From a virus: 14,834 nt of DNA. Below are positions 1,603 through 14,834 of this stretch, piece after piece. Each line of letters opens with the position of its first letter. The stretch's first letter is position 1. A program made the translations under genes and the position numbers. The stretch lies in the IMG/VR virus record IMGVR_UViG_3300012324_000001. One strand, 5' to 3'. The notes under the pieces are model-generated. The model was given only the letters and a program-made list of their open reading frames with translations, searched no databases and had not been told where the DNA came from.

Positions 1603-2117
1603 GCCGCGTCGTATATAACTTAAATCGTAGGGCCTAACGCTCGAGGGTTTCCCATTTTACTCTCAACTATTGCATGGGTCGCTAGGCCCTACACCCCTAG
1701 AGATTGATGAGGGTTAATTCCTATTTCCGTCGCACCACCGCGGAATTAGCCCTCATGGGTCGCTAGGAAAGACAATAACTAGATGACTCATTAGCCTACG
1801 TCGGGCTCAAAGCAGACGGACCCCCAGCTTATGATGTGAGTACTGGGAACCAACAACCACATGCGCTCAAGAGCTTTCGCTGAATACTCAAAGAGCTGGA
1901 CGTAGCGCCCCGGCTCTACCCCGCCCGATTAGCTACCGGACAGGGTTCGGCACTAAAGAGCCGCTTGTGCAAAAAGGCACAGGTGGCTATTAGTCGTGGG
2001 ATGACGTCGGAAAGCGGTCAAAACTGGGAATTTTCCACTGGGGGGTCATCGGGAAAATAATTCCCCTTAGGGGATTCCTATAAGTAGCTACCCTAGCCCG
2101 TGCATACCTAGTAAAGG
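1603..2117. promoter_or_regulatory. 515-bp non-coding region with nested direct and inverted repeats. Candidate promoter/operator region, replication origin or structured RNA.
   Basis: No ORF >=60 aa on either strand. 14-bp direct repeat CATGGGTCGCTAGG at 1673-1686 and 1754-1767. 14-bp inverted repeat TGAGGGTTAATTCC (1708-1721) / GGAATTAGCCCTCA (1742-1755), with one mismatch and a 20-nt loop. 9-bp inverted repeat GTAGGGCCT (1627-1635) / AGGCCCTAC (1684-1692). Recurring GGAATT/AATTCC half-sites. Confidence 0.4.
1965..1993 (+). promoter_or_regulatory. Candidate sigma70-like promoter (TTGTGC - 17 bp - TATTAG) upstream of the WhiB-HNH-terminase gene block.
   Basis: -35-like TTGTGC 1965-1970, 17-bp spacer, -10-like TATTAG 1988-1993, ~125-135 nt upstream of the 2118/2127 start. 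Confidence 0.2.
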
Positions 2118-2905: not shown

Positions 2906-3064
2906 TTGTCACAAAAATGGTTCGGACTTTTTTTAAAAACGGACTACGGGACACCCCACGCGCCAGCGTGTTCCTTTCTCCCCGGTAGAGGGTGCCCGGG
3001 GTCGTCCCCTACCCCCTACCCCCCTTAAAATCAAGTTGGCGAGAAAATAGGAGAAAATAAAGCT
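2906..3064. promoter_or_regulatory. Candidate cos / packaging-recognition region between the HNH and TerS genes.
   Basis: 159-bp intergenic gap with an unusual T7A5 tract (2928-2940) flanked by CGGACT direct repeats (2923-2928, 2940-2945). Also a C-rich (CCCCTAC)n tract at 3006-3026 and a GAGAAAATA x2 tandem (3041-3059). Assignment rests on position between HNH and TerS, as in HNH-dependent cos phages. Confidence 0.3.
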
Positions 3065-5017: not shown

Positions 5018-6079
5018 ATGGGAATTTTTAGCCGTATCCGAAACGCCCTCAACGCCCCGGCGCTCTATCACCCGAACGCGATAGCGAGCCCGCTCTCATC
5101 CGGTGATATCCTCGCCCCGGTATTCGCTGGACTGGACCTCCCCGCCCTGGATGGAGCCGTAACCCGCGATATGGCTATGGCCGTGCCCGCGCTCGCTCGA
5201 GCTCGTAGCCTCATATGTTCAACTATCGCCGGTGTCCCGCTCGTATCCGTCGATGACGATGGAGACGATGACGGCCGGACGCCGGATTACATTAAGTCAA
5301 CGCTGGGAGATGTACCGCCGTATCACCGCATGCTCTGGACGGTAGACGATCTATTCTTTTACGGGTGGTCATTGTGGGCGGTAGAGCGCGATAGCCGCGG
5401 CCGCGTCCTGGACGCCGCCCGCGTACCGTATGAGATGTGGTCGATGGATAGTGAGGGGAACGTCCTGGTCGATGGCGAGCCCGCCCGCGCTGAGGATGTG
5501 TGCCTCATCCCCGGTATCTCTGAGGGTATCCTCACGACCGGCCGCGCCACTATCGCTCAGGCTCATCAGCTACTACGCGCGGCCGCCCGCGCCGCCGAAA
5601 ATCCAGCCGCTCAGGTGGAACTACATCAAACTAATGAGGCCCCGATGACAGAAGAGGATGTGGAATTTCTCATCTCTAAGTGGGCTCGAGCTCGAGCGGG
5701 TGAAAACGGGGGAGTTGCTTTCACGTCCGCTGGTATTGAGGTTAAAGAGCATGGGGCCTCGAGTGAGCACCTACTCATTGAGGGACGTAACGCGGCCGCC
5801 GTCGATATCGCCCGTCATGCTAATCTGCCCGCTACGATGGTCGACGCCACGCTATCGGGCTCGAGTCTCTCATACCAGAACACCGCCGCGAGGATGAGTG
5901 AGCTCGTAACTTTTGGCCTCTCGCCACTAATGAAAGCCGTAGCCGCCCGGCTCTCGCAAAATGACATGAGCCCGGACGGCATTCGCCTATCGTTCGATAT
6001 GGATAGGACCTTTGAGGACCTATCCCGCGTCTATTCAGCCACATCTCAGGAGGATGAACTCAATGACACTAGTAACTGA
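5018..6079 (+). CDS. Portal protein (353 aa, short HK97-family-like portal).
   Basis: Position after TerL. N-terminal region ARARSLICSTIAGVPLV...GWSLWAVERDSRG resembles the conserved portal N-terminal helix and turn. No other portal candidate in the genome. Confidence 0.6.
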   Translation: MGIFSRIRNALNAPALYHPNAIASPLSSGDILAPVFAGLDLPALDGAVTRDMAMAVPALARARSLICSTIAGVPLVSVDDDGDDDGRTPDYIKSTLGDVPPYHRMLWTVDDLFFYGWSLWAVERDSRGRVLDAARVPYEMWSMDSEGNVLVDGEPARAEDVCLIPGISEGILTTGRATIAQAHQLLRAAARAAENPAAQVELHQTNEAPMTEEDVEFLISKWARARAGENGGVAFTSAGIEVKEHGASSEHLLIEGRNAAAVDIARHANLPATMVDATLSGSSLSYQNTAARMSELVTFGLSPLMKAVAARLSQNDMSPDGIRLSFDMDRTFEDLSRVYSATSQEDELNDTSN

Positions 6080-6866
6080 TTGGTCTCAGCGATTCAATTT
6101 CGGAGGCCCGCGCCCCACTGCAAAGATTCGGAATATCTTTATCCACACGACCGAGAACCCCTTTACATCTACAGCTGAGGGTGTCGCAAACTATCAAATC
6201 TCGAGTGAGTCGGGCTCATACCACGTGCTAGTGGACCAAAGCAAGCGACTCATCTGTAATACGGATGATTGGCTCACCTGGTCTACGGGTAACTATGGAA
6301 ATGACATTGGCCTACATCTTTCGTTTGTGGCCTACGCCGCCTCAACTCGAGCTCAGTGGCTCGAGGAAGAGAAACAGCACGGGACCATTAGCCGCGCCGC
6401 GGAACAGGTCGCCGCCTGGTCCAAAAAGCACAACATCCCGCTAGTGGAAGTCGATGGTAACGGCCTACTCGCCGGACGCCGTGGCGTCTCTACCCACAAC
6501 GCGGCCCGCGTGTGGGGAAATACGGACCATACGGACCCGGGCTCAGGGTTCCCGATGGACGTCCTGCTCTCTAAGGCCGCCCGCCCTAACTCCACCCCTC
6601 AACCTAAGAAAGTAGATGACATGTTTACCGATAAAGACCGCGACCTGCTCGAGCGCGTACACCATGAGCTAACCCACAAGTTTGACAGCCGAGCCGACCT
6701 GGACGCCAAAAAGCCTAACCCGTTCAAAGATACGGCTATTGGCTACGCACTCGAGGCAGATAAAAAGCTCGAGCTCGCCCCCGGCTCTAAGCTCGCTGAG
6801 GCATTCGACCACCTAGCCGCGGAACTAGCGGAAGTAAAATCGCTACTGACTAAGCGGGTGGACTAA
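6063..6866 (+). CDS. N-acetylmuramoyl-L-alanine amidase (Amidase_2/PGRP) endolysin with a C-terminal helical extension. The track start 6012 is replaced by ATG 6063.
   Basis: Amidase_2 signature residues: IHTTE (Zn His), SYHVLVD, NDIGLHLSF, and THNAARVWGNTDHTDPGSGFP (His...H.DP). RBS AGGAGGA 6048-6054 lies 8 nt before ATG 6063. Confidence 0.8.
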   Translation: MTLVTDWSQRFNFGGPRPTAKIRNIFIHTTENPFTSTAEGVANYQISSESGSYHVLVDQSKRLICNTDDWLTWSTGNYGNDIGLHLSFVAYAASTRAQWLEEEKQHGTISRAAEQVAAWSKKHNIPLVEVDGNGLLAGRRGVSTHNAARVWGNTDHTDPGSGFPMDVLLSKAARPNSTPQPKKVDDMFTDKDRDLLERVHHELTHKFDSRADLDAKKPNPFKDTAIGYALEADKKLELAPGSKLAEAFDHLAAELAEVKSLLTKRVD

Positions 6867-7018
6867 TGACCGCGCTCGCTATCGTGATGTGCCTAGTGTG
6901 CTCTATCGCCGGAGGCCTCGCCGCCGGGGCGATAGGGGCCCTCATCGTGCTAGATTCGATGGCTCGCCATGCGCCCGGTCATGCTAGAGCGCATGAGCAC
7001 CGAGCCACCACCACCTAG
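6866..7018 (+). CDS. Holin-like small membrane protein (50 aa): MTALAIVMCLVCSIAGGLAAGAIGALIVLDSMARHAPGHARAHEHRATTT. Not in the track.
   Basis: ATG overlaps the amidase stop (TAATG). ~30 hydrophobic residues followed by a charged His/Arg C-terminal tail, the classic holin layout. Confidence 0.35.
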   Translation: MTALAIVMCLVCSIAGGLAAGAIGALIVLDSMARHAPGHARAHEHRATTT

Positions 7019-7289: not shown

Positions 7290-8886
7290 AGGATTAATTA
7301 TCCCCTACGGAGCGCCCGGCCGGACTAATGGCGGTATTCTCACCATTAACGCCGGGGCGGTCACTGTTCCCGCGGACATTGGCCGTGTGAAGCTACTCAG
7401 GGACCACTCCACTGAGCCGGGCTGGTCGCCGGTCGGGAAAGCCGTCGATATGCAAGAGACAAAAGACGGACTCGAGATGACCTTTGAGATAGGCGACACT
7501 GAGGACGGCCGGACCGCAATAGCAGATATTGAGTCCGGTATCCGAGACGCCCTCAGCGTGGAAATTATCGACACTGAGGTAAAGGGAAATGAGCTCACTA
7601 GCGGTATCCTTACCGCCGTGGCCCTGGTCCCGATTCCCGCGTTTGAGGAGGCCCGTATTTCTGAGATTACCGCCGCTCAACACGTAGAAGAGGATGAGCG
7701 GGTGAGCGTAGTATTCGCCCCCGATTCCCCGGCCCTAGCCGCCTCCCAAGATACTCAAGTTACCCGCCCCGAAAAGGAAGAGGAAAGCATGACCGAGAAG
7801 CGCACCATTCGTAAGACTATCGAGGATGAGAAGGACAACATCCCCGCCTCGAGCGAGTCTAACGAGACCTCTAGCGATGAAGAGGATGAAGAGGATGAAG
7901 AGGATGAAGAGGATGAGCGTAAGGAGTCTCAGGTGAACGCCGCCCGTGCCCCCCGCGGCCTCATGGTGAAGCAGAACGCGCCGCTGACTTTCTCTCAGGC
8001 AGTTGAGACTATTCAGCGCATGCGGACCGGACAGGCTGGCGCGGAAATGACCGCCGCCCTGGCCGATATCACCCGCTCTGCTAACCCGGCCGTATCCGCC
8101 CCTCAGTGGTTGGGCCAAATGTGGGACGGCGCGGACTACGAGCGAGAGATCGTCCCCACGTTCACTCAGGCCACCCTCACCCGCATGAAAGCCGTTGGCT
8201 GGCGTTTCACCCAAAAGCCTGAGGTCGATGACTACGCGGGCGACAAGGCAGAAATTCCTACTAACACCGTCGCTACGGAGCCGGTAGAGGTCAACGCCAA
8301 GCGACTCGCCGCCGGACACGATATCGACCGCGCATATTTTGACTTTAACGAGCGCGAGTTTCTCGAGGCATTCTTCAACGCCCGCGTTGTGGACTACAAG
8401 TTAAAGACCGATGAGCGCGCCGCCAAGTTCGCCTTTGATTCCGCCAAGGCCGCCCCGGCCGTAACTACCGGAACTGAGCCGGACCTGCTGCACGCCGCGG
8501 CCCGCGCCCGCCTCATCATCAAGCAACGTACGCGAGTTGAGCCAACGACCTACCTGGTTAACCCGGCCTCTATGTTCGGTCTATTCCAGATTACCCAGCT
8601 GGACAACCCGGCCTATCTGGACCTGCTAGGTGTACGCCCTGAGCGTTTCCTCGCTACGGACCTCGTACCTGAGGGGCAGGTAGTAGCCTACGCTAAGCAA
8701 GCGATGACCTGGTTCGAGCTACCGGGCTCGCCTATTCGTGTCGACGCTGAACGCATTGACCACGGAGGTAAGGATTCCGGTATTTTCGGATACTACGCCG
8801 CCATTCTGAATAACTCTCAGGGTGTTGTGTCTATCCCGTTCAATACCACCCCGGCCGCCCCGGTCGCTGACAACAACGAGGCCTAA
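7279..8886 (+). CDS. Prohead (capsid maturation) protease fused to major capsid protein (535 aa), joined by an acidic scaffold-like linker.
   Basis: N-terminal ~130 aa match the HK97 gp4-type prohead protease family (Peptidase U35/S78): VKLLRDHSTEPGWSPVGKAV...ETKDGLEMTFEIGDTEDGRTAIADIESGIRDALSVEI, with catalytic His in RDHS and Ser in ALSVEI. An acidic linker SSDEEDEEDEEDEEDE follows. The C-terminal ~330 aa is the only capsid-sized gene between portal and connector and has MCP-like segments (TYLVNPASMFGL..., GQVVAYAKQAMTWFELPGSPIRV). Confidence 0.7.
   Translation: MKIKGLIIPYGAPGRTNGGILTINAGAVTVPADIGRVKLLRDHSTEPGWSPVGKAVDMQETKDGLEMTFEIGDTEDGRTAIADIESGIRDALSVEIIDTEVKGNELTSGILTAVALVPIPAFEEARISEITAAQHVEEDERVSVVFAPDSPALAASQDTQVTRPEKEEESMTEKRTIRKTIEDEKDNIPASSESNETSSDEEDEEDEEDEEDERKESQVNAARAPRGLMVKQNAPLTFSQAVETIQRMRTGQAGAEMTAALADITRSANPAVSAPQWLGQMWDGADYEREIVPTFTQATLTRMKAVGWRFTQKPEVDDYAGDKAEIPTNTVATEPVEVNAKRLAAGHDIDRAYFDFNEREFLEAFFNARVVDYKLKTDERAAKFAFDSAKAAPAVTTGTEPDLLHAAARARLIIKQRTRVEPTTYLVNPASMFGLFQITQLDNPAYLDLLGVRPERFLATDLVPEGQVVAYAKQAMTWFELPGSPIRVDAERIDHGGKDSGIFGYYAAILNNSQGVVSIPFNTTPAAPVADNNEA
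7876..7917 (+). repeat. Tandem 9-bp repeat (GATGAAGAG) x ~4.7 encoding the (DEE)n acidic linker inside the protease-capsid gene.
   Basis: Direct reading: gatgaagag repeated at 7876, 7885, 7894, 7903, then gatgag. Confidence 0.85.
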
Positions 8887-10804: not shown

Positions 10805-12728
10805 TAAGACTGCTATCCTCTCAGTCCGTATCATTTCGGACGCGAAAAAAGCGGTAGCCGGATTCAAGGAGGCCGCGGGCGGCCTGGACGGCCTCGAGCG
10901 CAAACTGAATAAGGTCCAACCGGCCGCTACCGTAGCCGCGGGCGCGGTCATCGCTATGGGTAAACAAGCGATTGATAGCGCCTCTAAGCTCCAACAGTCT
11001 ACCGGCGCGGTTGAGGCTGTATTTAAAAATCAGTCGACCGCGATTAAGAAACTCGCCGCGGACGCGGCCGGGGCGGTAGGTCTATCCGCTAATCAGTATC
11101 AAGAGTTCGCCTCAGTCATTGGCTCTCAGCTTAAAAATCTAGGAACCGCTCAAGAGGACCTCGTACCCACTACGGATAAACTCATCACAATGGGCGCGGA
11201 CCTCGCCTCAATGTTCGGAGGTACTACCGCGGACGCCGTAGAAGCCCTCTCTGCTGCTTTCCGTGGTGAATATGATCCAGTTGAGCGCTACGGCATTTCG
11301 ATTAAGAAGAGCGACATTAACGCCCGGCTCGCCGCTAAGGGCCTGGACGGCCTCGAGGGTGAGGCGCTGAAAACCGCGGAAACTCAAGAGTTGCTCGCTA
11401 TGCTGACTGAACAATCAGCGGACGCTATGGGCAATTTCCAGCGCGAGACAGACACCGCCGCGGGCTCAGCGCAAATCGCCGCCGCTAATTGGGAAAACGC
11501 TAAGGCCTCGCTAGGTGAGGCATTCCTGCCTATTGTCACTCAGGCCGCGGAAAAGCTCGCTGGCATGTCTAGCGCCGTGAAAGAGCACCCCCAGTTATTT
11601 ACCGCAATGGCCGGGGCAATTGTGGGAGCCGCTGCCGCTATCAACCTCGCGCTACTCGCTATTAAGGGCTATCGCGCTGTTACCACTATCGTTACTGGTA
11701 TTAAGACCGCATGGGCGGGCCTGAACACGTCGATGGCCGTCATCCGAGGCCAGATGATTCTAGGTAACGCCGCGGCCGCCGCCCGGTCCGCTACCGCGTG
11801 GGTCGCCGCCGCCGCCCGCGCCGCGGCCGCATGGGTCGCTAACGTCGCCCGTATGGTGGGAGCGTGGGCTATGGCCGCCGCTCAGTCTGCCATCCACGGG
11901 GCTCGAGCCGGTATCCAGTGGGCACTAGGAGCCGCCCGCGCCGCTACCGCATGGGTAGTTAACCTCGCTCGTATCGGTATTGCCTGGACTCTCACAACGG
12001 CCCGCGTAGTAGCTCAGCTCGCCATCCAGCGCGGCGCTATGATGGCCGCCCGAGCCGCCACCCTTATGATGGCGGCAGGACAGGCGATTCTAAACGCCGT
12101 CATGTCTGCTAACCCTATTGCCATCGTGGTACTCGCCATCGCCGCCCTAGCGGCCGGGCTCGTAGTCGCCTATAACAAGAGCGAGACTTTCCGAAACGCG
12201 GTACAGGCCGCGGGTCGATTCGCTAAGGCTGCATTCGACCTCGCTAAAAACGCGGTAATGGGAGTCATTCACAAAATTGGCGAGGTCATTGGCCGCGTAG
12301 GTGGTGTTGGTGGTGCATTCCGTACCGCCATGAGTATCGCTAAGGGCGCGGTCGATATCCTCACATGGCCGCTACGTCAACTCATTGGTTTCATCGAAAA
12401 CGTCATTAGCGCGATTAGCCGTATCCGGTTCCCGTCGCCGCCTGGATGGATGAGAAAGCTCACGGGCGGCGCGGTTCAATTCTCAGCCGCTGGCGGGGCC
12501 ATGCTTACCGCCGCGGGGCCCGCTACGTTTAGCCCTATTGGTGGCGTGCTCTCAGGCGGTAGCTCGCCCGCCCCGGTCAATGTGGATAACAGGGTGATTA
12601 TTAATGTGGACGGGTCCGGTATTGTCGACCCCCGCGCCGTTGCTGAGCAAATCAGGGACGCGCTTAAATCGGATGGCCGCGGGCGCGGAGGCCGCCTCGC
12701 CGCCGGGGGAGGTGCTCAATGGCTGTAA
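10797..12728 (+). CDS. Tape measure protein (643 aa).
   Basis: Position after G/G-T. Long Ala-rich helical sequence with internal repeats (ATAWVAAAARAAAAWVANVARMVGAW...ATAWVVNLARIGIAWT), a hydrophobic membrane-like core (IAIVVLAIAALAAGLVVAY) and a Gly-rich C-terminus. Confidence 0.85.
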   Translation: MASKTAILSVRIISDAKKAVAGFKEAAGGLDGLERKLNKVQPAATVAAGAVIAMGKQAIDSASKLQQSTGAVEAVFKNQSTAIKKLAADAAGAVGLSANQYQEFASVIGSQLKNLGTAQEDLVPTTDKLITMGADLASMFGGTTADAVEALSAAFRGEYDPVERYGISIKKSDINARLAAKGLDGLEGEALKTAETQELLAMLTEQSADAMGNFQRETDTAAGSAQIAAANWENAKASLGEAFLPIVTQAAEKLAGMSSAVKEHPQLFTAMAGAIVGAAAAINLALLAIKGYRAVTTIVTGIKTAWAGLNTSMAVIRGQMILGNAAAAARSATAWVAAAARAAAAWVANVARMVGAWAMAAAQSAIHGARAGIQWALGAARAATAWVVNLARIGIAWTLTTARVVAQLAIQRGAMMAARAATLMMAAGQAILNAVMSANPIAIVVLAIAALAAGLVVAYNKSETFRNAVQAAGRFAKAAFDLAKNAVMGVIHKIGEVIGRVGGVGGAFRTAMSIAKGAVDILTWPLRQLIGFIENVISAISRIRFPSPPGWMRKLTGGAVQFSAAGGAMLTAAGPATFSPIGGVLSGGSSPAPVNVDNRVIINVDGSGIVDPRAVAEQIRDALKSDGRGRGGRLAAGGGAQWL

Positions 12729-14242
12729 CGCCTAAGCCATCCGTTTACATTAATGGCCGCCGCGTCGCGTGCTCTACGTATGCCCTGGACCGGGAGCCGG
12801 TCGCTATTCGTGGATTCGAGATTAAGTGGGGGCGCGCTGATTACCACGATTCCGACGCGGAACCCGCGTCAATTCGTCTACATATAGCGGACTCCACGGG
12901 TAAATGGGCTGAGTTGATTCGCACATCTCAAGCGATTGGACAGACTCTCGAGGTACGCCTCGAGGGGACCAACGACAAGACATACGAAACTCAAACCTGG
13001 ACACAGTTCCGCGGGCGCGTCTCTCGTGCGCTCGCCCGGCCGATGAGCAACACGGGCCCTCAGGGCGAGCAACGTTGGGAGATTACCCTGGACGGTGCAG
13101 ACCGTACCGCGGACATGGGCTCTCGTACCGTAACTGAGAGTGAGTGGCCTCAAGAGCAACTACTAACCCGCGCTATCCGTCTCCGCGATTATGGAAAAGC
13201 GGCTGGTAGCGGTATCGACAATATCTACTTTTACCCCGGCTATCTCGAGTCACGGTGTGGACCGCTGGACACTCAGCGCGCCACCCCGCTAGACCTCATG
13301 GGGCAGATGTATAGGTCTATGGGTAATGACTCGTGGGCCTACGACCCGGACGGGAACGTCGTTCGACAGGTGATTCGTCTCGCTCAGTCGCTACATATTC
13401 ACCTGGGCACGTTTGACGATACTCAGGGCGCGGTTATTCCAGTGGTGAACGATATCACTGTGGATAAGGTGCGTTATGAGGGTATCGGGCTAGGTGCATG
13501 CGAGCTCGCTGGCGATCCGCAAATTGAGGCTGACGTATCGACCGACATCAATAGGTTAGAGTGCAAGTGGAAAGACTACTCTACCGGATTTAAAGACTGG
13601 ACCACTGTTAAACAACAGGTTCCAGCGGGCGGCTCAGTCCACACGATGACCTGGGATAGCTGGTTTGACGCGGGCGAGGTCATCGACCCCACGCTCGCTA
13701 ACGTGTGGAATAGAGTACGCCAAGAGGGAGCCCGGCCGCGCCACCCTGAGATGGAACTACACCACCAAAAGACTTTCCCCACTTTCAGGCATGCTCACTG
13801 GTGGTTACATACGTGGGAGAATACCCGCCCGGCCTATCTAGCGGGCTCGCTACCGTGGCTATGGGTCATGGGAGGCTCAACTGACTATCCGCCCGTGGTC
13901 GCCCCGATTGGTGGCACTACGTCATATGATCCACGCTACGGATGGACCGTATCGATGACGGTCCACTGGATACAGAACACATCTACCACTAAGGACCCGG
14001 TACGATGGAACGACCTACCACAAATTAAATTCCAACTCAATACCGACACAGTCCCTTGGTGGTGGAAAACAGCCGGTTTACCTACGCCGCCGCCTAAGAC
14101 AGTGGGTGAGCGGACCCCTGAAAGAGATCTCACGTGGGGAGAGGTATCGGATGGCCGCGGCTACCGATTCGGAGATTCCGTCACGTGGGGAGACATGCAA
14201 AATGTACCCACTAACGGGGCTCAGATTGTTGACCATTTCTAG
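12719..14242 (+). CDS. Minor tail protein, Dit-like (distal tail) N-terminal domain with a Trp-rich C-terminal extension (507 aa).
   Basis: Immediately follows the TMP with a 10-nt overlap. N-terminus (VYINGRRVACSTYALDREPVAIRGFEIKWGR...) resembles siphovirus distal tail proteins. C-terminal half is rich in W/Y/P (WWLHTWENTRP..., PWWWKTAGLPTPPPK), consistent with a carbohydrate- or receptor-binding module. Confidence 0.5.
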   Translation: MAVTPKPSVYINGRRVACSTYALDREPVAIRGFEIKWGRADYHDSDAEPASIRLHIADSTGKWAELIRTSQAIGQTLEVRLEGTNDKTYETQTWTQFRGRVSRALARPMSNTGPQGEQRWEITLDGADRTADMGSRTVTESEWPQEQLLTRAIRLRDYGKAAGSGIDNIYFYPGYLESRCGPLDTQRATPLDLMGQMYRSMGNDSWAYDPDGNVVRQVIRLAQSLHIHLGTFDDTQGAVIPVVNDITVDKVRYEGIGLGACELAGDPQIEADVSTDINRLECKWKDYSTGFKDWTTVKQQVPAGGSVHTMTWDSWFDAGEVIDPTLANVWNRVRQEGARPRHPEMELHHQKTFPTFRHAHWWLHTWENTRPAYLAGSLPWLWVMGGSTDYPPVVAPIGGTTSYDPRYGWTVSMTVHWIQNTSTTKDPVRWNDLPQIKFQLNTDTVPWWWKTAGLPTPPPKTVGERTPERDLTWGEVSDGRGYRFGDSVTWGDMQNVPTNGAQIVDHF

Positions 14243-14250
14243 GAGATAAA

Positions 14251-14834
14251 GTGCCTCAGTACACGCAAAATTATAAAATTCCCTACCCCGTCGATGGCGA
14301 CCCTATTTATCAGGGCGCGGCTCAGATGAAAGCACTTGCTGAAAAGGTGGACGCCACGATGATAGGCGTCTCAGGAAAGCCCGGCCCTCAGGGTGACACG
14401 GGCCCCGCGGGCCCTCAGGGCACCCGCGGCCCGGCCGGACCCCCGGGCCCGGCTGGTCCTGAGGGCCCTCGAGGCGCTACGGGTGCTAAGGGTGACACCG
14501 GCGACCGGGGCCCCGCGGGCGAGACTGGACCCGTGGGCCCTGCTGGACCTACCGGCCCTCGAGGCGCTACGGGTGCTCAGGGCGAGCCCGGCCCCGCGGG
14601 CCCTAAGGGTGAGGCCGGAACGGGTTTCACGCTCAAGGGCTCAAAGAGTAATAAATCTGAGCTACCCAACAACGCTAAGGCTGGAGACGCCTATCTCGTA
14701 GCGGGCAATGTAATGGTGTGGTCTGGTAGCGCGTGGGAAAACGTGGGGCAGATTCAAGGCCCCGCGGGTCCTGAGGGCCCTCGAGGCGCTACAGGTGAGC
14801 AAGGCCCCACGGGTGCTCGAGGCGCTACGGGTGC
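14251..14834 (+). CDS. Collagen-like minor tail protein / tail fibre, N-terminal part. GTG start; runs off the window end and continues at nt 128. Full product ~406 aa with two Gly-X-Y blocks.
   Basis: RBS AGGAGA 14241-14246, GTG 14251, in-frame stop TGA upstream at 14230-14232. 28 Gly-X-Y triplets (14374-14625) then a linker ([46 protein letters not shown]) that runs into the second collagen block at window nt 51. The frame was checked across the 127-nt overlap: 14713 is in frame with 14251. Confidence 0.7.
   Translation, partial: MPQYTQNYKIPYPVDGDPIYQGAAQMKALAEKVDATMIGVSGKPGPQGDTGPAGPQGTRGPAGPPGPAGPEGPRGATGAKGDTGDRGPAGETGPVGPAGPTGPRGATGAQGEPGPAGPKGEAGTGFTLKGSKSNKSELPNNAKAGDAYLVAGNVMVWSGSAWENVGQIQGPAGPEGPRGATGEQGPTGARGATG
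14708..14834. repeat. Exact 127-bp terminal duplication (identical to nt 1-127), marking a circular or terminally redundant contig.
   Basis: Base-by-base identity of 14708-14834 with 1-127, ending exactly at the window end. The matching sequence is unique and non-repetitive (ATGTAATGGTGTGGTCTGGTAGCGCGTGGGAAAACGTGGGGCAG...). Confidence 0.9.

Follow-up and report, generated by a model that had tools for sequence, protein, structure and literature searches.

The window analyzed here is the whole 14,834-nucleotide (nt) stretch of IMG/VR virus record IMGVR_UViG_3300012324_000001, and the element in question lies in its 515-bp gene-free region at positions 1603 to 2117 (the gap), between the genes of a small zinc-ribbon protein and a WhiB-like protein. 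Comparison with related loci marks this element as a candidate for a new family of complex structured RNAs, carried by minimal siphoviruses of Corynebacterium. All called genes of the window are on the + strand, and they are arranged around the gap as follows.

799-1104, 1101-1436, and 1426-1602, + strand: three small open reading frames (ORFs), the last encoding the 58-amino-acid (aa) zinc-ribbon protein
2118-2636, + strand: WhiB-like protein, followed by HNH nuclease, TerS, TerL, and portal
After the portal gene, + strand, in order: endolysin, capsid-protease fusion, connectors, major tail protein, tape measure, minor tail protein

The gap is the longest gene-free stretch (the next longest are 159, 135, and 34 bp), and its G+C content of 51.8%, versus 58.0% for the genome, is within the lowest 4% of 515-bp windows, which agrees with its first-pass annotation as the only long noncoding stretch of below-average G+C. 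That annotation, made from the letters of this one sequence, had pointed to a 14-bp direct repeat and two inverted repeats of 14 and 9 bp, and had favored a replication origin over an operator or a structured RNA. The repeats are real and nonrandom but a minor part of the feature, whose best-conserved and most structured portion (1818-2090) is located 3′ of them. The feature is larger and more interesting than had been described; the structured-RNA alternative was right, and the evidence does not support the origin that was favored.

The first and last 127 bases of the window are identical (1-127 and 14708-14834), and this exact terminal overlap indicates a circular assembly of ∼14,707 bp. The circular junction falls within a collagen-like (Gly-X-Y repeat) tail-fiber gene, 14252-14834 continuing into 6-764. 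On the basis of its capsid protein, the window groups with the smallest known siphoviruses, of 14 to 17 kb (Gordonia phages EricDab and Schiebs, Rhodococcus phage RRH1, and Arthrobacter cluster AN). Scans for exact patterns located the conserved gap core in Corynebacterium senegalense, C. mastitidis, C. oculi, and C. halotolerans, which identifies Corynebacterium as the host genus; the window is a ∼14.7-kb siphovirus of Corynebacterium. Related loci were gathered by DNA pattern scans and by a protein search with TerL, which was itself identified in the window via relatives and not via Pfam or PHROGs. They amount to ∼21 phages and prophages from ∼8 independent lineages, and some are prophages with repressor and excisionase-like genes. 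The order zinc-ribbon gene, gap, WhiB, HNH, TerS, TerL is kept among them. DNA searches for near and distant matches among 50,697 phage records found none, and a looser pattern scan of viral contigs yielded mostly chance matches, from which the covariance model described below sorted out two true new members.

Base pairing kept in the main body of the element

Between distant relatives, DNA similarity is confined to ∼1930-2081, where it reaches 75 to 85%, compared with ∼33% identity of the adjacent WhiB proteins. The fold predicted for this part and its 5′ flank has two pseudoknots, one three-way junction, and one four-way junction, and is made up of the following elements.

1823-1862, + strand: H-type pseudoknot, Hb (1823-1827/1843-1847) interleaved with Ha (1834-1838/1858-1862); in every lineage, with differing sequences
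1873-1878/2010-2015, + strand: long-range helix P1, GCUUUC/GAAAGC; both hexamers identical in 21 of 21 sequences
1879-1951, + strand: three-way junction, helix Hd (1879-1883/1947-1951) around hairpins Hc and H0
1892-1899/1910-1917, + strand: hairpin Hc, inside Hd
1918-1921/1943-1946 plus 1925-1927/1937-1939, + strand: hairpin H0, inside Hd; loop 1928-1936 with UAGCUAC
1959-1988, + strand: hairpin H1, 12 bp (1959-1970/1977-1988); 97.4% of cells paired, both-side change in 7 of 12 pairs
1989-2050, + strand: nearly invariant core with H6′, H2, the 3′ strand of P1, H3, and two xUGGG words
1995-1998/2005-2009, + strand: H6′, proposed by RNAalifold; pair 1996:2008 is G-C, and A-U in L136
2000-2004 in the H6′ loop with 2046-2050, + strand: H2, the second pseudoknot; pair 2001:2049 is A-U, C-G, or G-C
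2025-2027/2035-2037, + strand: H3, hairpin in the core

Plain MAFFT alignments already display the hairpins with their pairing kept and with sequences that differ by lineage. Structural alignments were then built by hand because MAFFT misaligned helices between clades (Hc, for instance, by one column). In alignment A5, a hand-made structural alignment of 19 sequences over window positions 1873-2050, 95.9% of the cells are standard pairs, versus 75.6 ± 1.0% upon shuffling and 34 to 42% when the partners were slid by 1 to 3 columns, and 32 of the 51 pairs changed on both sides. A covariance model derived from A5 found two members outside the seed, L136 (99.8 bits) and L146 (68.5 bits), whose helices are formed by new sequences; in L146, Hc is built from a wholly different sequence (GGAUUGGG/CCUAAUCC). 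The Infernal alignment of all 21 sequences, including these two nonseed members (A8), scored 92.6% paired cells and both-side changes in 23 of 48 pairs with the original structure, and 94.2% paired cells with the revised one. Across both main-body alignments, slid controls ranged from 33 to 46% and shuffled controls were at ∼75%.

RNAalifold on A8 recovered Hd, Hc, H0, H1, and H3, and suggested the P1 pairing and the 12-bp form of H1, both of which we adopted. A first model in which GCUUUC paired with GARAGC just 5′ of H1 was dropped, as RNAalifold on A8 and covariation at 1961:1986 (C-G, G-C, or G·U) place those bases in H1. Both-side changes affect all five pairs of Hd, six of the eight pairs of Hc, and all four pairs of outer H0. 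P1 is selected by RNAalifold and pairs in every cell, but is beyond the reach of a covariation test because its bases never vary. The H-type pseudoknot, assessed on alignment A7, has 96.9% of its cells paired and both-side changes in 7 of 10 pairs (slid controls, 16 to 59%). The H0 loop always holds a self-complementary word (UAGCUA, UGAUCA, GAUC, GGCC, or CUAGCUAG), which could mediate kissing-loop dimerization.

The core follows the consensus CGUGGGxUGACnnCGGAAAGCGG...xUGGGA...xUGGGGGGUCAx, with 40 to 45 consecutive positions nearly invariant. The base 5′ of its two UGGG words (C2024 and C2038 in the window) is identical in both copies in all relatives, and its states are C/C, A/A (acquired at least three independent times), U/U, or G/G, never mixed. 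The two words are 14 to 16 nt apart throughout, although the hairpin between them changes shape. A third covarying column was looked for as a partner of this base, and none was found.

G·U outnumbers A·C within the helices (43 versus 14 cells; 18 versus 6 distinct occurrences), and this excess suggests that selection acts on a single + strand, the one that follows the transcription direction of all genes. The same asymmetry excludes explanations based on duplex DNA for most of the pattern, whereas RNA and + strand single-stranded DNA are not separable so. RNA is the more natural reading in view of the pseudoknots and multi-way junctions and of how tightly the element is coupled to the start codon downstream. 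The gap carries no conserved reading frame, only ORFs of ≤31 aa that are not conserved. A coding reading of the core is rejected because single-base insertions and deletions between close relatives break the frame; the peptide ISRGMTSESG, readable in several relatives, was ruled out as a coding explanation of the core.

Hairpins upstream and downstream of the main body

The 5′ part of the gap (1603-1817) folds as + strand RNA into two long hairpins, with a z score of −4.19 and none of 200 shuffles as stable; the minus strand scored −1.78. The features of this part are listed here.

1627-1692, + strand: hairpin HPa, arms 1627-1639/1680-1692; starts 25 nt past the zinc-ribbon stop codon; window lineage only
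1673-1686, + strand: first copy of the direct repeat, CATGGGTCGCTAGG, duplicated from the conserved word that spans 1754-1767
1696-1767, + strand: hairpin HPb, arms 1696-1721/1742-1767; holds the 14-bp inverted repeat; loop with the conserved word CGUCGCACC
1755-1791, + strand: hairpin HPc, AUGGGUC (1755-1761)/GACUCAU (1785-1791) with inner stem CUAG (1763-1766)/CUAG (1779-1782); alternative pairing of the conserved word

Each of the three repeats noticed at first is there, and both inverted repeats proved longer. The 14-bp inverted repeat (1708-1721/1742-1755) extends to 26-nt arms that are 81% complementary, i.e., HPb, and the 9-bp one to 13-nt arms that are 92% complementary, i.e., HPa. Both are kept as structure among relatives, and compensatory changes occur in the 14-bp inverted repeat and in at least nine further helices. 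The direct repeat is exact at 1673-1686 and 1754-1767, with ∼5e-4 such pairs expected by chance in 515 bp; it is a lineage-specific duplication, with copy 1 occurring only in the window, L045, and L104, and partially in L040, L102, and L017.

Close relatives retain the arms of HPa around a swapped 40-nt loop. In L040, a double change mends an A·C mismatch of this hairpin, which otherwise varies only by G·U wobbles; L024-type relatives lack HPa. HPb was evaluated on alignment A9, where 91.6% of the cells are paired, 8 of 16 pairs changed on both sides, and slid controls gave 26 to 47%. It is kept in four sequence versions (GGGUUAAUUCC/GGAAUUAGCCC, GGGCUAAUACCG/CGGUAUUAGCCC, GGAUUACCCACC/GGUGGGUAAUCC, and GGACUAAUCAG/CUGGUUAGUCC), and its 3′ arm contains the conserved word CCUCAUGRGUCGCUAG, of which direct repeat copy 2 is part. 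The inner stem of HPc also covaries (CUAG/CUAG, CUAGC/GCUAG, CUAAGC/GCUUAG, and GGUA/UACC). Since the 3′ arm of HPb and HPc share 1755-1767, i.e., direct repeat copy 2, these two hairpins are mutually exclusive. No U-tract is found 3′ of HPa or HPb.

Downstream of the core, the gap ends with three further features.

2062-2081, + strand: hairpin H4, CCCC-UUA-GGGG (2063-2073), then AUUCCUAU; terminator-like, weak (4-5 bp)
2084-2091, + strand: GUAGCUAC, complement of the H0 loop
2112-2129, + strand: Shine-Dalgarno sequence AAGGA and start of the WhiB-like gene, at ATG 2118 or, more likely, 2127

The segment after H4 has 4 U in 8 positions. A terminator scan reported no + strand site in 1603-2117 and flagged H4 on the minus strand only. 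H4 and the upstream zinc-ribbon gene (1426-1602) co-occur in six lineages, and both are lacking in two (H4 is missing from L005, L095, and L023), a pattern that hints at a protein partner at H4. TAGCTAC occurs in the genome only at 1930, 2084, and 2085, all inside the element. Six of nine sequence types have the 7-nt word GUAGCUA, complementary to the H0 loop, in their 3′ leader, and in four it is directly beside the Shine-Dalgarno sequence. The core G-run could likewise pair with the CCCC of H4. The WhiB-like gene opens the operon, which continues with HNH, TerS, TerL, portal, and later genes. In all cases the element lies on the coding strand, and the distance from the core to the first start codon is ∼68 to 85 nt in every lineage, even where a 71-aa membrane protein replaces WhiB.

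A putative leader of the late operon and its rivals

We tentatively read the gap as the + strand structured 5′ leader RNA of the late operon, a new family that would act in cis as a gate; leader control of the late genes is probably what the element serves, rather than a repeat-based replication origin. Two traits of a leader, conserved structure with compensatory changes and a constant position and orientation upstream of an operon, are both present. The comparison establishes conservation, a base-paired architecture, a strand bias, an absence of coding potential, and a constant location ahead of the operon; transcription of the region, its action in cis, and its way of gating are inferred. 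The transcript would span ∼260 to 420 nt, from ∼1696 or 1823 to 2117 on the + strand, and would be made together with the genes of the late operon, namely, those of the WhiB-like regulator, the HNH nuclease, the terminase, and the virion proteins. From 5′ to 3′, it is predicted to form HPb or HPc, the H-type pseudoknot, and a domain closed by the GCUUUC/GAAAGC helix that encloses the three-way junction, the 12-bp hairpin, and the second pseudoknot; after it would come a GC hairpin, short and with a U-rich tail, and then, by the ribosome-binding site, the word complementary to the upstream loop.

So folded, the RNA may gate the passage from the few early genes to the ∼12-kb late transcript. It could do this either by rendering RNA polymerase resistant to termination or as a pairing switch, in which HPb would compete with HPc, the G-run would engage H4, and the H0 loop would engage the Shine-Dalgarno-side region. 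Either option would provide control over read-through and over translation of the first late gene, and the upstream zinc-ribbon protein may act at H4. A gate in cis is favored because of the position at the early/late boundary, the constant 68- to 85-nt spacing, the switching features, and the H4/zinc-ribbon co-occurrence.

Several observations weigh against this interpretation. The minimum free energy of 1818-2117 is unremarkable (z scores of −1.4 and −2.4 for the + and minus strands, respectively), and the argument is a comparative one. Fitting of the main alignments to the structure, whether manually or with the covariance model, inflates the pair counts, and the sequences represent only ∼8 independent lineages; the E-values are rough owing to a shortened calibration. 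Pairing conserved on one strand also fits single-stranded DNA. The xUGGG bases covary directly instead of as partners of a pair, a pattern that no helix accounts for. The search for conserved promoters and terminators yielded no convincing candidate, the sole promoter-like site being inside the element and not conserved. Two lineages lack H4, which rules out a universal switch of the terminator type, and none of the alternative pairings (HPb/HPc, G-run/H4, and H0 loop/Shine-Dalgarno word) is universal either.

The first-pass suggestion to search for a known family returned nothing from Rfam 15 (4,227 models, including riboswitches, ribozymes, ROOL, GOLLD, T-box, group I introns, and RNAI), either for the whole window at E ≤ 1 or for 1590-2140 at E ≤ 10 with lax filters, where scores of 9 to 26 bits against thresholds of 39 to 99 are at chance level. 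A GAAGAGGAUGAA-type repeat at 7879-7935, inside the capsid-protease gene, where it encodes an acidic Glu/Asp-rich repeat, produced a spurious archaeal snoRNA match (26 bits; threshold, 50). A tRNA/tmRNA scan detected none. A whiB7-type leader would have a conserved upstream ORF, and here there is none, with 1-nt insertions or deletions separating close relatives. When the core was read by eye as cos, attP, sigma-H promoter, G-quadruplex, hammerhead, T-box, or HDV-like, the defining features were lacking in each case. No published description of the element was found in the literature searched.

A stand-alone noncoding RNA gene ending at H4 and acting in trans on host or phage processes, possibly as an oligomer formed via the H0 loop, is unlikely as a reading of the gap. 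In its favor, the complex fold leaves many invariant bases unpaired, in six of eight lineages the core is followed by a GC hairpin and a U-rich tail, and every H0 loop variant carries a self-complementary word, with a chance probability of 0.02 to 0.28 per loop. Precedents for such RNAs exist (PMC12286853 and PMC5712189). However, H4 is weak as a terminator and absent from the three loci named above, no promoter was identified, and both the fixed spacing between the element and the next start codon and the word complementary to the H0 loop by the ribosome-binding site fit action in cis instead.

We regard as improbable an origin run by host enzymes, a modified form of the first-pass idea, either through an R-loop pre-primer transcript (ColE1 RNA II-like) or through hairpin priming on single-stranded DNA in rolling-circle replication. 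As the first-pass annotation remarked, the genome has no recognizable replication gene: Pfam and PHROGs identified no replication protein among the window genes scanned, a set outside which TerL, a 50-aa ORF (6866-7018), and the tail-fiber gene lie. The gap is also the only long noncoding region, and one-strand pairing with G·T tolerated would look alike for single-stranded DNA. The conserved G6 run (2040-2045) and the A-runs recall R-loop-forming primers. An iteron-type origin would have at least three regular direct repeats of ∼17 to 22 bp and a cognate Rep gene, whereas the gap has two 14-nt copies, 81 nt apart, the first of which is absent in close relatives; Tandem Repeats Finder reported no array in the gap, and the neighboring proteins are without Pfam or PHROG replication match. 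Neither an AT-rich unwinding element (G+C is 50 to 53%) nor a DnaA-box cluster occurs in the gap, where two DnaA-box-like words, each with one mismatch, sit in loops at positions variable among relatives. Cumulative GC skew peaks at ∼3.0 kb and is minimal at ∼9.5 kb, away from the gap, a test that is weak because all genes are on one strand. Furthermore, coding sequence begins ∼45 nt past the element, and pseudoknots and multi-way junctions are hallmarks of RNA that DNA priming signals do not typically show. In the isolated Gordonia and Rhodococcus relatives, which must replicate as well, the gaps have no match to the covariance model.

A single-strand origin of the ssoA type (RSB plus the CS-6 motif TAGCGT plus a Rep gene) does not fit either, as there is no Rep gene; UAGCG is present in the Hc loop of some lineages, and others have UUGACCGG, UUCGUGCA, and the like. 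That the folded transcript would itself be the replication origin, as a ColE1-RNA-II-like pre-primer or a folded priming signal that would let host enzymes alone copy a tailed phage lacking replication genes, deserves still less credence; if true, it would be the first RNA-defined origin in a tailed phage (Caudoviricetes) and would explain 14- to 17-kb actinophages that are devoid of replication proteins. Genome-wide, DnaA-box-like words (TTNTCCACA, ≤1 mismatch) number 15, against 6.0 ± 2.3 expected and with none of 200 shuffles reaching 15; three are the perfect TTATCCACA, and five are on the minus strand at 12581-14069, mostly inside the minor-tail gene. These words may mark a host-dependent origin elsewhere in the genome.

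DNA-level operators, i.e., dyads bound by the zinc-ribbon protein, WhiB, or small helix-turn-helix proteins at a late promoter, with TAGCTAC at 1930 and 2085 as paired operators, are very improbable. The confinement of TAGCTAC to the element, the near-palindrome of H4 and its co-occurrence with the zinc-ribbon gene, and the two xTGGG words that change in concert, like protein-binding direct repeats, would suit them. Most stems, however, vary freely with pairing kept, where operators would conserve sequence instead; the asymmetry of G·U over A·C is meaningless for duplex DNA, and interleaved (pseudoknotted) complementarity is unexpected. The operator proposed at first for the upstream protein is conceivable for H4 but cannot explain pairing that is kept while sequence changes, and this protein, then described as basic, is near neutral by count from its sequence. 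Finally, terminator hairpins after the early genes followed by a spacer or an unannotated small gene are strongly disfavored: hairpins do start 25 nt past a stop codon, and a 31-codon ORF (1965-2060) overlaps the core, with similar peptides readable in some relatives, but HPa and HPb have no U-tracts, 1-nt insertions or deletions between close relatives break the frame, and a spacer would not retain 40 to 45 invariant positions and >10 covarying helices where proteins fell to ∼33% identity.

Known systems and neighboring features

The role of the putative leader would parallel that of the processive antitermination RNAs HK022 put and Bacillus EAR, or that of the lambda Q/pR′/tR′ region. HK022 put and the Bacillus EAR are cis-acting structured RNAs placed early in such units, require little or no phage protein, and measure ∼70 nt, with two hairpins (put), and ∼120 nt, with a pseudoknot (EAR). 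Such economy would suit a 14.7-kb genome. The window element nonetheless differs in its length of 260 to 420 nt, its two pseudoknots and two multi-way junctions, and the lack of any shared sequence similarity. In lambda, the order is Q gene, pR′, 6S RNA, tR′, lysis genes, cos, and terminase genes, and Q binds zinc. The window likewise has a small regulator gene, a putative noncoding leader with a terminator-like hairpin, and late genes that run through cos into terminase and virion genes. The lambda leader lacks the conserved, complex folding of the element; no similarity to Q was detected in the 58-aa zinc-ribbon protein, and no promoter was located in the window element.

Riboswitches and the actinobacterial whiB7 leader resemble the element in its conserved aptamer-like core with invariant junction bases, its location upstream of a WhiB-family gene, and the hairpin with possible alternative pairings that follows. 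They differ in that there is no Rfam riboswitch match and no whiB7-like conserved upstream ORF, and in that H4, the candidate expression platform, is missing in two lineages. ColE1 RNA II may be compared with the element as a structured transcript of several hundred nucleotides with G-rich segments, in a replicon that has no initiator protein; the element, in turn, has no antisense-RNA partner and has coding sequence directly 3′. In the mycobacteriophages L5, D29, and StarStuff, Pleft at the right end of the genome drives an abundant stable noncoding RNA, the evidence for which is RNA-seq and Northern blotting and not structure (PMC5712189). Like the gap, it belongs to an actinobacteriophage noncoding region of ∼500 bp that lies close to the right genome end at the start of a lytic operon and is without a conserved ORF, but it heads the early operon, not the late one, and has no sequence match to the element in the phage collection. 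ROOL and GOLLD are phage- and prophage-encoded elaborate folds with pseudoknots and kissing-loop assembly (PMC12286853), which the self-complementary word always carried by the H0 loop brings to mind. At ∼580 and ∼800 nt, respectively, they are larger, occur near tRNA islands and in other phyla, and their Rfam models do not match.

With the element, the few large structured RNAs known from phages gain a candidate family, and fold complexity of this grade usually marks riboswitches, ribozymes, or RNA machines. Tailed phages of 14 to 17 kb are near the smallest known and have to time late genes and replicate with ∼20 genes. Prophage copies in four named, culturable Corynebacterium strains, namely, C. 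mastitidis DSM 44356, C. oculi NML 130210, C. senegalense Marseille-P4329, and a C. halotolerans strain, render the element directly testable as a switch, an antiterminator, or a primer.

The gap is not a cos site, as the physical ends of isolated relatives are between HNH and TerS or within HNH. This genome-end site corresponds to the 159-bp gap of the window at 2906-3064, ∼900 bp downstream of the element, which is therefore probably the cos/terminase-binding region; it contains short tandem repeats of CCCCTAC (×2.6; 3006-3023) and GAGAAAATAG (×1.9; 3041-3059).

Covariance model R1 has no match in the equivalent gaps of EricDab, Schiebs, SallySpecial, and RRH1, in L006 and L007, or in McGonagall and Arthrobacter phage Toulouse, the last two of which are without a comparable gap. 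Its single match, in the tape-measure gene of EricDab (E = 0.004), was judged spurious. In the isolated Gordonia and Rhodococcus mini-phages, a noncoding gap of 190 to 510 bp is located just upstream of the last genes before cos, and no sequence or model similarity between these gaps and the Corynebacterium element was detected.

13225-13733 of L106 (Schiebs): mini-phage gap
15672-15926 of L105 (EricDab): mini-phage gap
15264-15575 of L108 (SallySpecial): mini-phage gap
13158-13347 of L107 (RRH1): mini-phage gap

Two loci with TerL ∼66% identical, L006 (1161-1740) and L007 (217-562), have a different noncoding gap of up to ∼580 nt at the same position. It carries TAGCTA-type palindromes and the words GAAAGCGG and ACTGGGA in changed order, and may be a rearranged or analogous element. 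Elsewhere in the window, the endolysin (amidase) gene (6012-6866) is sited between the genes for portal and capsid, where lysis genes are not usually found, and the same arrangement is found in the Gordonia and Rhodococcus relatives.

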